Of a DNA stretch of 12,220 bases, positions 1,419-9,663 are shown piece by piece. This DNA is from a virus (Duplodnaviria > Heunggongvirae > Uroviricota > Caudoviricetes): IMG/VR virus record IMGVR_UViG_2534681937_000031, one strand, 5' to 3'. A program made the translations under genes and the position numbers. A model generated the notes under the pieces. It was given only the letters and a program-made list of their open reading frames with translations, was not told the origin of the DNA and searched no databases. Every line of letters starts with the position of its first letter. Positions within the stretch are counted from its first letter, which is position 1.

Positions 1419-1856
1419 TTAAAAATCAGCCTGACTCGGGATCAGTTTTTGCCAGATAACTGAAACGTATTTTGCCTGGTAACGGGCGTCATCAAGTGCA
1501 TTATGGCGCTCACCTTCGAATGGAATAGCCGTTCTGGCATCGAAGTCTATGGCTTTCCCCAGCTCAACGATTGTGCGTACATCGCGATCGTTGTAGTAAC
1601 GCCACGGGCAGGGGATCCCCTGCCGTTCGTATGAACGGCGCAAAATCGTGTTGTCGAAGTTGGCTCCATTTCCCCAGACCTGAACAAAAAATTCACCGGA
1701 GTTTTCGTCGATAAATTCCCGCAATTGTAACAGTGCATCATCTAACGGGATTTCATCGGTCATAATGGCAGATTGCGCTTCGCGTGATTGCTTAAGCCAC
1801 CATTTAATGGTGTCCCTCGCCGTGTGCTTTCGTGTTGTGTGCCTGCTTTTTACCAC
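1419..1856 (-). CDS. DnaQ-like DEDDh 3'-5' exonuclease domain, apparently 5'-truncated (Exo II and Exo III motifs only)
   Basis: Translation contains Exo II-like WGNGANFDNTIL and Exo III-like HNALDDARYQAKY, but no Exo I (D-x-E) motif in the ORF or in any frame of the 240 bp upstream. Neither candidate start (GTG 1856, ATG 1763) has a convincing SD. Probably a gene remnant. Confidence 0.5.
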   Translation of the reverse strand: MVKSRHTTRKHTARDTIKWWLKQSREAQSAIMTDEIPLDDALLQLREFIDENSGEFFVQVWGNGANFDNTILRRSYERQGIPCPWRYYNDRDVRTIVELGKAIDFDARTAIPFEGERHNALDDARYQAKYVSVIWQKLIPSQADF

Positions 1857-1880
1857 GTCAGGCGAGGTGGTCCCCGTTAT

Positions 1881-1926
1881 TCCCCAACAACAAGGATCTT
1901 GTTAATCTGGATATCCCCAACAACAA
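1881..1926 (+). repeat. two 13-bp direct repeats TCCCCAACAACAA (1881-1893 and 1914-1926), 33 bp apart, in the 5' region of the 1941-2456 gene
   Basis: Exact repeat seen directly in the sequence; lies between the truncated exonuclease ORF and the GTG start at 1941. Confidence 0.6.
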
Positions 1927-1940
1927 TAAGAGTATTGAAT

Positions 1941-2456
1941 GTGATCGCTGAATTAACGGCAGCAATGACGGCTATTCGTGAAACCGCCCAGATTGCAAAA
2001 CTAATGAACGAGGCAAAAACTCAAGCTGAAGTAAATGCGGCTATTGGTGAACTGAACTCAAAGCTTGCATCTATTCAGCGCGAATGCGTGTCTCTCGTTG
2101 AGCTGGTGGGCACTTATCAAGAAATAAATGCTTCTCTCAAAGCTAAAATTGCAGAATTTGAAAACTTTGAGGCTCAGACGGAAGGTTATATCCTTAGCCA
2201 ACTTGAGTCGGGAACTTTTGTGTACTCGAAGGAGGTAACCGTGAACGGCGGCAGCATAATCATGCATCTTTGTCCAAAATGTTTTGGACAAAAGATAGTA
2301 TCGATACTTCAGCCATTCCCGGTTAGAGAATATGAATTTTTTCATAAAAGCAGGTGCCTGTACTGTGAAAATCAGTTTCTTATGAATAAAAATCCGGATT
2401 ACGTATCACCTCCATCTATTGAAGAGTTGGCCAGAAAACTGAACGGCAATCTGTAG
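1941..2456 (+). CDS. hypothetical protein, N-terminal coiled-coil plus C-terminal C4 zinc ribbon (CPKC...x20...CLYC); candidate moron/accessory gene
   Basis: Open frame 1788-2456; the upstream part overlaps the exonuclease ORF, so the likely start is GTG 1941 (AAGAG 10 nt upstream) or ATG 1965. About 171 aa. Visibly AT-rich relative to the replication region. Oriented opposite to the int-xis and early-left genes. No family recognised. Confidence 0.6.
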   Translation: MIAELTAAMTAIRETAQIAKLMNEAKTQAEVNAAIGELNSKLASIQRECVSLVELVGTYQEINASLKAKIAEFENFEAQTEGYILSQLESGTFVYSKEVTVNGGSIIMHLCPKCFGQKIVSILQPFPVREYEFFHKSRCLYCENQFLMNKNPDYVSPPSIEELARKLNGNL

Positions 2457-2495
2457 ATTTTTACTGTTATGGATATCCAGATTGTTAAAGAGCAT

Positions 2496-2519
2496 GCCGG
2501 ATGCTTGCTTGTGTCCGGC
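2496..2519. terminator. possible hairpin between convergent genes (GCCGGA-12 nt-TCCGGC)
   Basis: 6-bp inverted repeat with 12-nt loop in the 114-bp gap between the 3' ends of the 1941-2456 (+) and 2571-2801 (-) genes. No clear U-tract on either strand, so termination function is uncertain. Confidence 0.25.
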
Positions 2520-2570
2520 GCGTGTGCACCACTCTCCCCCCGTGGAGGATTCCTTAATTACCAGATTTCA

Positions 2571-3038: not shown

Positions 3039-3515
3039 TTAAGTTCCTGTCTTGGTGATGTTCTGGCTTTTCCGTTTTGATTCTTGATTTTTCAGATAGT
3101 TAGCTACCTTCATTTCCATTGCGGCAATGTAGGCACGAACGTCATGATCAACCCAACTAGGCTCCGTAGCATTTCCAGATAAGAGGAAAGCCACAATTGC
3201 TCTTTTTTCATCAGAGGCGGCTTGATAAAGGCTGTTTATGTCTAAAAGTTCACTTTTTGTATCTGAAGTGGATGGGGTTGGTATGGGGTATTCGTTAAGC
3301 CCCCAATGCTCTGGACCAACCACATCAGAAAAGAAACGCCATAGTTCTGGAAGTTTGTCTTTACTTATCGAACCTTTCTTAATCCAGTCATGGATTGATG
3401 GTGGTTGGACTTTGAAATGACGTGCGATTTCCGCCTTTGATTTGACGGCTCCTGATGCAATTTTTTTGTTAATGGCCTGCTCTATCGCTCGGCCTAAGTC
3501 TTTACCACTAAGCAT
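3039..3515 (-). CDS. racR: prophage repressor, RacR-like HTH protein
   Basis: 158-aa ORF with N-terminal HTH (AEIARHFKVQPPSIHDWIKKGSIS); divergent from a Cro-like gene across an operator-rich gap; AGGAG 8 nt upstream of ATG at 3515. Length and context match E. coli Rac prophage RacR as recalled. Confidence 0.8.
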   Translation of the reverse strand: MLSGKDLGRAIEQAINKKIASGAVKSKAEIARHFKVQPPSIHDWIKKGSISKDKLPELWRFFSDVVGPEHWGLNEYPIPTPSTSDTKSELLDINSLYQAASDEKRAIVAFLLSGNATEPSWVDHDVRAYIAAMEMKVANYLKNQESKRKSQNITKTGT

Positions 3516-9264: not shown

Positions 9265-9507
9265 ATTCATTCCGTATGGGAATTCCCATATCGGGCAAAA
9301 CGGTTTGCTGTAAAGCGAGAGTTAAGTAGAATTGCTGCGGGTGCTTGAGGCTGTCTGCCTCGGGCATGCCACCGTAAGGCAGACAGAGAAAAGCCCCAGT
9401 TAACATTACGCGTCCTGCAAGACGCTTAACATTAATCTGAGGCCCAATCTATGCTTCACAAACGTAGGTTAGCCTCTTACGCGCCGAAAGGCAAGGAGAA
9501 GCAGGTT
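9265..9507. other. hok leader/regulatory region (expected site of mRNA fold-back elements and any Sok-like antisense RNA)
   Basis: Contains a 22-bp near-palindrome CCGTATGGGAATTCCCATATCGG (9272-9294) and the hairpin CTGTCTGCC-N18-GGCAGACAG (9351-9386). An in-frame upstream ATG at 9451 with GAGG SD precedes hok. Antisense RNA not located. Confidence 0.35.
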
Positions 9508-9663
9508 ATGAAGCAGCAAAAGGCGATGTTAATCGCCCTGATCGTCATCTGTTTAACCGTCATAGTGACGGCACTGGTAACGAGGAAAGACCTCTGCGAG
9601 GTACGAATCCGAACCGGCCAGACGGAGGTCGCTGTCTTCACAGCTTACGAACCTGAGGAGTAA
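9508..9663 (+). CDS. hokD: Hok/Gef-family type I toxin (HokD/RelF-like, 51 aa)
   Basis: Translation MKQQKAMLIALIVICLTVIVTALVTRKDLCEVRIRTGQTEVAVFTAYEPEE matches the Hok family and, as recalled, E. coli HokD. AAGGAG 9 nt upstream of ATG. Confidence 0.9.
   Translation: MKQQKAMLIALIVICLTVIVTALVTRKDLCEVRIRTGQTEVAVFTAYEPEE

Follow-up and report, generated by a model that had tools for sequence, protein, structure and literature searches.

A Rip1-related gene and its conserved flanking elements in a Rac-type prophage of Escherichia coli O157:H7

Rip1, a single protein encoded by prophages, has no toxicity of its own (review PMC13434031); it was described, with a cryo-electron microscopy (cryo-EM) structure, in 2026 (Patel et al., Nature 651:1060). 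Phages that escape Rip1 carry mutations in the portal (Pseudomonas phages) or in the small terminase (E. coli phages), and 12 Rip1 copies are arranged around the 11-mer ring of the small terminase; the ring is contacted by the C-terminal half of the protein, the N-terminal part being an amphipathic helix (PMC13434031). The complex forms a pore: liposomes leak their dye, cells are perforated, and infected cells therefore die before phage maturation (PMC13434031). Rip1 homologues are widespread in Proteobacteria, chiefly in prophages (PMC13434031), and a meeting report and a citing paper agree with the review on Rip1. RAZR, the ring-activated zinc-finger RNase (Zhang et al., Nature 2026, PMC13017515), also assembles around large phage rings, including portals, and the paper describing it makes no mention of Rip1. 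Here we analyse a stretch of DNA of 12,220 nucleotides from a Caudoviricetes record (IMG/VR IMGVR_UViG_2534681937_000031), hereafter the window, and in it the open reading frame (ORF) at 1941-2456 of the plus strand, which encodes a protein of 171 residues. We propose, with a probability of roughly 0.65, that its product is a Rip1-family, single-protein abortive-infection defence that would sense phage ring proteins and become a membrane pore.

Kinship of the 171-residue protein with Rip1

The frame at 1941-2456 is open and appears both in the ORF list and in RefSeq, where the same coding sequence (CDS) is WP_000559928.1, 'hypothetical protein'. Its GTG start codon, which is shared by nearly all homologues, is supported because they keep the N-terminus MIAEL... 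The protein falls in PHROG_1244, a family of 'unknown function', at 1e-57, and the same family is matched by HK446 gp37 (2e-53), HK620 HkaP (8e-51) and JBD30 gp30 (3e-61). Searched against the PDB, the family profile found chain 9oox_L, 'ring interacting pore 1 (Rip1)', with E=8.9e-24 over residues 6-152, and the single sequence retrieved the Rip1 of 9oox with E=3.6e-7. This entry is a cryo-EM structure of Escherichia phage HK446 Rip1 with the small terminase of Enterobacteria phage T6, and its Rip1 chain is identical in sequence to HK446 gp37. By BLASTP the window protein is 27% identical to HK446 Rip1 (5e-13) and 30% identical to JBD30 gp30 (6e-20), and tblastn against phage genomes gave about 30% identity in the Pseudomonas Mu-like phages DMS3, JBD30, JBD69, MP38 and D3112, 28.8% in HK620 hkaP, HK629 and HK630, and 27% in HK446.

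Structure prediction points to the same relative. The AlphaFold2 model, built from an alignment of 30 sequences (mean predicted local distance difference test score, pLDDT, 91.4), has helices at residues 3-23 and 28-79, a beta-rich region at 84-150 and a short helix at 160-168, that is, a helical hairpin (residues 3-79) followed by a C-terminal beta domain that carries C111, C114, C139 and C142, the four of them invariant among 30 homologues. The initial annotation had described, from the sequence, a product of about 171 residues with a long N-terminal coiled coil and a C-terminal C-x2-C...C-x2-C zinc ribbon, and the helical N-terminus and the four cysteines of the model agree with this, the zinc ribbon as such being putative. 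When the model was compared with the PDB by Foldseek, only 9oox chains (9oox_M and 9oox_L) scored below E=0.001; for 9oox_M the match has E=5.7e-7, probability 1.00, 28% identity, a root-mean-square deviation of 3.5 A over 120 columns and a template modelling (TM) score of 0.73 when normalised on the target, the query-normalised score being only 0.56 because part of the N-terminus is absent from the solved chain.

In a joint alignment of the window clade with HK446 Rip1, HkaP and JBD30 gp30, residues Q46, L66, Y83, V94, Y95, C111, C114, I122, C139 and C142 are invariant, and in the SILQ motif that includes I122, L123 and Q124 are nearly so. An exhaustive profile search returned 3332 cluster representatives at E<=1e-3, almost all of them of 145-180 residues, and, judged from these sequences, PHROG_1244 is a large family of single-domain proteins; no homologue with a housekeeping phage function was found among the relatives. 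Sequence homology, fold, the cysteine and SILQ motifs and the layout as a single antisense prophage gene all agree with what defines Rip1. By its homology and its modelled fold, then, the 171-residue protein is assigned to a divergent enterobacterial clade of the already described Rip1 family, and its gene is probably a defence gene, with activity and trigger extrapolated from relatives that are 27-30% identical.

This outcome changes the view taken in the initial annotation, for which the gene was a candidate undescribed accessory or defence gene whose product matched no family. That statement holds for Pfam and NCBIfam, where nothing beyond coiled-coil noise was found for the 171-residue protein, and for PADLOC-DB v2 (2023), a library older than the Rip1 description whose best match (E=0.041) is a coiled-coil artefact; it fails for PHROG_1244 and for 9oox. 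The profile and structure searches that had been suggested led to Rip1 by way of the PDB, with no significant match in the defence library. Defence consequently stands as the best-supported role, on homology of sequence and fold to Rip1, and it is the word 'undescribed' that has to be given up, the family being catalogued as PHROG_1244 and Rip1 having been described in 2026 with a cryo-EM structure. Literature searches for WP_000559928, PhiR49/PhiR29 and HkaP returned nothing relevant.

The likeness to HK446 Rip1 (gp37) goes beyond family membership: the two proteins have similar lengths (164 and 171 residues), the same fold and, in each, helices at the N-terminus followed by a four-cysteine beta domain at the C-terminus, and both genes lie antisense in the early-left operon beside the immunity region. 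They differ in an extra C-terminal helix (160-168) in the window clade, besides the identity of only 27%. The proteins of the Pseudomonas Mu-like phages (JBD30 gp30, DMS3, MP38 and D3112 orf25) share the PHROG, the antisense orientation and 30% identity over 153 residues; however, their genes belong to the late (packaging) region of transposable phages and lack the leader described below, whereas the window gene belongs to the early-left region of a lambdoid prophage. The position of JBD30 gp30, between a gene in the small-terminase position and terL, fits the original Rip1 as described in PMC13434031. RAZR resembles the window protein in concept, as a small zinc-finger immune protein that assembles on phage rings, but its effector is an RNase and it forms a 24-mer; Foldseek gave no match between RAZR and the window protein, and we claim no membership in its family.

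Alleles of the gene differ mainly at sites that leave the protein unchanged: the ratio of non-synonymous to synonymous substitution (dN/dS) is 0.14-0.19 against alleles on other prophage backbones, and by this sequence measure the alleles are under purifying selection. Nine of the ten non-synonymous differences to the allele of phage PhiR49_1 lie in the C-terminal half. Within the ORF, over the codons of the first C-x2-C, a perfect 11-bp inverted repeat with a loop of 2 nt (TTTGTCCAAAA TG TTTTGGACAAA) occupies 2269-2292, and it could be due to chance or form a local RNA hairpin.

A slot for variable cargo beside the immunity region

The window is identical to the E. coli O157:H7 prophage that adjoins potC (in EDL933, NZ_CP008957 from 1,629,367), which we take to be the one named CP-933N/Sp4. 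In the Rac prophage of K-12 the order is recE-racC-ydaE-kilR on the minus strand, sieB on the plus strand, then ydaF and racR, both on the minus strand; the ORF at 1941-2456 holds the sieB slot, and ydaF adjoins sieB in K-12 as the DUF1391 gene adjoins our ORF. Both this position, at a site that in Rac-type prophages is normally held by recombination and kil genes, and the orientation convergent to int, xis and the early-left direction had been noted in the initial annotation, and the K-12 gene order, the ORF list and RefSeq bear them out. N and cIII flank rip1 in HK446 and hkaP in HK620 and HK630, and the flanked gene is on the opposite strand, antisense to the early-left (PL) operon. JBD30 gp30 is likewise antisense in its own location, and the homologues in Salmonella, Citrobacter, Edwardsiella and Enterobacter without exception adjoin the immunity region in antisense orientation. 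Surveyed across related prophages, the slot is occupied by sieB, rip1, hkaP or other cargos.

SieB, a superinfection exclusion and abortive-infection protein (PF14163; lambda, P22, Rac), is expressed by the prophage and acts against other phages late in infection, in which respect the window gene would be like it, and it shares with the window gene the slot, the antisense orientation and a homologous structured leader. Unlike the window protein it is an integral membrane protein; the two are related neither in sequence nor in fold, and the SieB profile PF14163 gave no match to the window protein at E<=0.1.

The gene is carried by 682 of 5426 complete E. coli genomes, on several prophage backbones, and the whole arrangement from xis to racR as in the window occurs in only 267 E. 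coli genomes. A segment of 661 bp at 1833-2493 (plus strand), comprising leader, ORF and 3' element, was delimited by blastn as a mobile cassette shared with an unrelated backbone: it is 93.6% identical to phage PhiR49_1, nothing else in that flank being homologous, it is carried also by strain KD602, the backbone of both being CPS-53-like, and it matches by itself in other E. coli genomes. Nor is the gene fixed among related prophages: the prophage of strain 222 at the same potC site has a full exonuclease gene, DUF1482, dicB and rha and lacks it. The gene is thus a variable, moron-like cargo of the early-left arm, as the initial annotation had suspected. In an Edwardsiella prophage (L016, 8105-9785), a gene with a GmrSD_N domain and an adjoining uncharacterised gene occupy part of the interval from N to the repressor, at a distance of a few kb from the Rip1-like gene; GmrSD is a type IV restriction family, and the neighbourhood may be read as a further sign that the region collects defence cargo.

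The remaining gene order of this Rac-type prophage can be given briefly. The int gene (1-1119) and xis (1088-1357), both on the minus strand according to the ORF list and RefSeq, are followed by an exonuclease pseudogene (1419-1820, minus strand), the ORF, a DUF1391/YdaF-like gene on the minus strand that forms the right-hand border of the slot (2571-2723; RefSeq CDS, Pfam PF07151 at 6.6e-30), a racR-type prophage repressor gene that anchors the immunity region (3039-3515, minus strand, RefSeq annotation), ydaS- and ydaT-like genes and the replication genes (plus strand). The ORF has a GC content of 41.9% against 55.3% for the replication genes and 49.7% for the whole window, so that the lower GC claimed for it is real. 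Farther to the right, in the nin-like region, an Rfam match to sok antitoxin RNA (9339-9513, plus strand; 115 bits, E=4e-26) overlaps an ORF for a Hok-like toxin (9451-9663, plus strand); judged by these matches, 9339-9663 is a hok/sok-type toxin-antitoxin module.

Proposed action of the protein and the condition of the prophage

The proposal builds on observed homology to HK446 Rip1 in sequence and fold, on domain order, slot, antisense orientation and type of leader, on the variability of the cargo and on purifying selection; binding, oligomerisation, pore formation, protection and the identity of the trigger we infer from the published Rip1. In a lysogen the protein would be produced at a low level and be harmless by itself. 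Once a superinfecting phage reaches late gene expression, ring oligomers of its portal or small terminase would serve as a scaffold around which the four-cysteine C-terminal domain would dock and about 12 copies would assemble, and the N-terminal helices would then line a pore in the inner membrane, whose integrity would be lost before progeny are finished. The rare GTG start together with the conserved leader and its pairing with the 3' element would hold expression low, and, given the convergent placement in the early-left operon, the prophage's own leftward transcription after induction would silence the gene; the phage would therefore avoid triggering its own defence. Expression of P22 sieB is regulated in a comparable manner by the antisense 'sas' RNA.

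A Rip1-family protein could also act in another way, blocking packaging or assembly through ring binding, or excluding phages as SieB does, without a lethal pore. The slot is otherwise held mostly by SieB-family genes, HK620 hkaP is annotated as 'putative superinfection exclusion protein', the C-terminal domain is the more variable part of the protein, the N-terminal helices are only moderately amphipathic and a membrane segment is not predicted, all of which would suit such an action. On the other hand, the N-terminal helical region matches that of HK446 Rip1, for which a pore is reported, in length and position, and nothing in the sequence suggests a separate effector, so that we consider a different mode of action unlikely.

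Several observations weigh against the ring-sensing, pore-forming defence that we favour. The trigger and the outcome may differ from those of characterised Rip1, because identity to the characterised members is only 27-30%. Hydropathy reaches a 19-residue maximum of 1.13 and no transmembrane segment is predicted; the maximal hydrophobic moment, 0.44 at residues 7-24, was reached by 173 of 500 shuffles, HK446 Rip1 having 0.42 at the same position. A sigma-70 consensus promoter was not found in 1857-1940, and, for a TAAT-like hexamer that in relatives often stands directly 5' of the GCCTG with which the leader begins, no convincing -35/-10 pair could be defined.

The condition of the prophage adds to these points. 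The exonuclease gene next to the ORF is truncated at its 5' end, as had been proposed: its Pfam Rv2179c-like match spans only profile positions 47-177 of 177, its PHROG matches lie at the C-terminal ends of exonucleases of 264-823 residues, RefSeq lists it as a pseudogene with its N-terminus missing, and related prophages have a full gene of 2.46 kb. Homology to full-length exonuclease genes ends at window position 1816, which puts a deletion junction at about 1816/1817, 24 nt upstream of the leader. Strain JNEC-KY175 shows the intact layout, exo-DUF1482-dicB-[gene]-DUF1391, and relative to this strain the window prophage has lost about 2.9 kb at this point: two kilobases from the 5' end of the exonuclease gene, then DUF1482 and dicB, and some 400 bp of the sequence in front of the leader. 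Because the deletion stops 24 nt before the leader, it may have put other sequence in the place of any -35 region of the cargo promoter, and expression in the window prophage is only putative.

In a prophage degraded to this extent, with its exonuclease gene truncated and its dicB region lost, the gene could be a passenger, unexpressed or functionless and kept in O157:H7 through clonality only. Neither a consensus promoter nor a terminator beside the ORF was found by scan, and the 288 genomes that carry the gene at >=99% identity are mostly O157:H7, which would agree with such a history. The intact ORF and its low dN/dS against alleles on other backbones argue otherwise, and so do a leader and a 3' element that are wholly kept and a cassette that is maintained across many lineages and genera. 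We therefore regard a mere passenger as improbable, and less probable than a Rip1-family protein with another action.

A conserved leader and 3' element around different cargos

The ORF is preceded by a leader (1841-1940, plus strand) recognised by its conservation across genera: it is 73-87% identical to that of distant genera, against 56-67% for the nucleotides of the CDS. Two short interleaved stems were derived by hand in it, stem A (GCCTG at 1841-1845 with CAGGC at 1859-1863) and stem B (CCAC at 1853-1856 with GTGG at 1867-1870). Downstream of them the leader has two TCCCCAACAACAA repeats (1881-1893 and 1914-1926; 0.46 expected) and a Shine-Dalgarno-like AAGAG (1928-1932); the loop of a leader hairpin bears CCCCAACAA, and a second CCCCAACAA stands immediately 5' of AAGAG. 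Just past the stop codon a conserved 3' element (2458-2493, plus strand) contains the core GGATATCCAGATT at 2471-2483 followed by GTTAAAGAG, and the cassette homology ends with it at 2493.

Leader and 3' element are complementary to each other. A repeat finder identified a long-range inverted repeat whose 5' arm lies at 1904-1929 (plus strand; core AATCTGGATATCC at 1904-1916), and the conserved GGATATCCAGATTGTTAAAGAG right after the stop codon is the reverse complement of AATCTGGATATCC. The arms, 1904-1929 and 2458-2483, are 26 nt long and 81% complementary, and the RNA duplex predicted from them has -31.4 kcal/mol against -13.9 +/- 3.5 for shuffles, none of 1000 shuffles reaching this value; in 19 other loci the corresponding duplex has -27 to -36 kcal/mol. 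Over 22 distinct arm combinations 91% of the cells of the core pairing are paired and four pairs are altered on both sides (none in 500 shuffles), these changes stemming from two cargo types and the arms having been chosen by regular expressions, so that the outer duplex pairs are invariant by construction. Farther into the duplex, one more compensatory change is seen among the alleles of one other cargo. The HK446, HK620 and JBD30 genes have no such inverted repeat bracketing the ORF.

These flanks bear on a last alternative for the protein itself, a zinc-ribbon regulator that binds nucleic acid, for instance one of prophage genes, perhaps acting on palindromic GGATATCC sites that flank its own gene. 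The four-cysteine ribbon is present and palindromes containing GGATATCC occur at both ends of the ORF. Yet unrelated cargo genes whose products have no zinc ribbon are flanked by these elements too, the only structural relative of the protein is Rip1, and the compensatory changes between the arms argue for RNA pairing rather than for a fixed protein site. A regulator is thus very unlikely, the least probable of the alternatives to a Rip1-type defence.

In other genera an intrinsic terminator (AGCGTCC...GGGCGCTTTTTT) directly follows the 3' element. The window lineage has in its place a GC-rich hairpin read from the sequence (2496-2519, not assigned to a strand; GCCGGA...TCCGGC, no T run), otherwise seen only in the KY175-type arrangement; the scan called no intrinsic terminator at 2496-2519, and the hairpin may serve the convergent DUF1391 gene.

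With 2764 of 5426 E. coli genomes, carriers of the leader are four times as many as carriers of the gene. The stem A/B element also stands 5' of HK446 rip1, of hkaP in HK620 and HK630 and of Rac sieB, where the stems vary together: CCCGG/CCGGG in Rac sieB (two compensatory pairs), and elsewhere GCCGG/CCGGC and CCGC/GCGG. The stems are complementary in 120 of the 120 instances found, and the search pattern had permitted non-complementary combinations. The loop motif is CCCCAACAA in the window clade and CCCCUACAG in HK446, where the duplex between leader and 3' untranslated region (UTR) is absent. A leader of the HK446 type occurs in at least 120 viral contigs, mostly ahead of SieB-family genes (PF14163 at 1e-8 to 1e-31) and otherwise of Rip1-like ones, and consists of two hairpins in which the loop is always CCCCUACAG and the stems vary but stay complementary, the second stem including the Shine-Dalgarno sequence. 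Across 78 distinct leaders a hairpin of at least 6 bp surrounds the first motif in 62, against 30% in a control with shuffled flanks. Besides the window, the leader was located at L005 3841-3940, L003 3898-3997 and L182 3602-3706, with the loop consensus CCCCnACA.

Rfam gave no match to the leader, RNAalifold returned weak or partial structures, and the minimum free energy of the single sequence is no better than that of shuffles (z=-0.25). Because automatic consensus folding is weak, the leader structure is a hand-derived hypothesis, for which covariation is suggestive but not rigorous; hand-derived stems are a weaker standard of support. Two other explanations were tried and rejected. The leader is not the anti-sRNA (anti-small RNA) AgvB of enterohaemorrhagic E. 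coli (EHEC), whose genes are of 51-60 nt and lie at the PR' moron site; insertion of the cargo into an empty palindrome, AATCTGGAT^ATCCAGATT, found no support in a search of viral contigs for the exact empty site (0 matches).

Other cargos stand behind the leader in the same slot: an ECs1072 family (98-151 residues), a family with two transmembrane segments (about 148-171 residues, with a short upstream ORF) and an LprI-like protein with a signal peptide (170 residues). None of the three has a PADLOC match or a significant Pfam match, and their position makes them candidate anti-phage genes. Such cargos were seen on the IMG/VR contigs L153 (2603-3037), L154 (2603-3115) and L156 (2697-3176), and also on L036, L073, L093 and L034. 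In a Rac-like prophage of E. coli BL21 (L155, 2501-2772) the first 34 nt of the leader, with stems A and B, are followed by an unrelated ORF of 66 residues in the dicB-DUF1391 interval; many E. coli genomes contain these 34 nt at 97% identity, so that stems A and B may form an element separable from the rest of the leader.

It is tempting to see in these loci an undescribed modular cassette system that occupies the sieB slot of lambdoid and Rac-type prophages and joins a structured leader to interchangeable anti-phage cargos (SieB, Rip1-like, ECs1072, two-transmembrane and LprI-like), a view that we hold tentatively, at somewhat less than even odds. The leader would consist of the pseudoknot-like stems A and B and then one or two hairpins with CCCCnACA loops, the last overlapping the Shine-Dalgarno sequence; in the window clade the duplex of 13-26 bp between leader and 3' UTR would add to the control of cargo expression, and the conserved ends may also supply the homology by which cargos are exchanged. 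The leader and 3' frame may act in translational control or in processing, may protect from antisense transcription or respond to it, or may anchor the exchange of cargos; that CA and GGA motifs of the leader are targets of GcvB, Hfq or CsrA is speculation.

If such a cassette system exists, the uncharacterised cargo families behind the leader would be good new candidates for defence genes, and the leader would be a new class of cis-regulatory RNA, with a phage or host factor as its possible signal. As the leader marks a slot in which two known anti-phage families and several uncharacterised ones are found, it offers a simple sequence handle for new candidate defence genes; it could also serve to test how dangerous genes of the abortive-infection kind are controlled in prophages. 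To specialists, the leader and slot that these cargos share are perhaps newer than the gene itself, and this by-product may prove the more useful. As to the gene, a probable function can now be proposed for a 'hypothetical protein' present in about one eighth of complete E. coli genomes and in essentially all sampled O157:H7 strains. Its divergence shows that Rip1-type defences comprise clades that lie far apart, and the phage rings recognised by the C-terminal domain may differ from clade to clade. For phage therapy and typing of EHEC, an abortive-infection gene triggered by packaging proteins could alter the susceptibility of these strains to phages.

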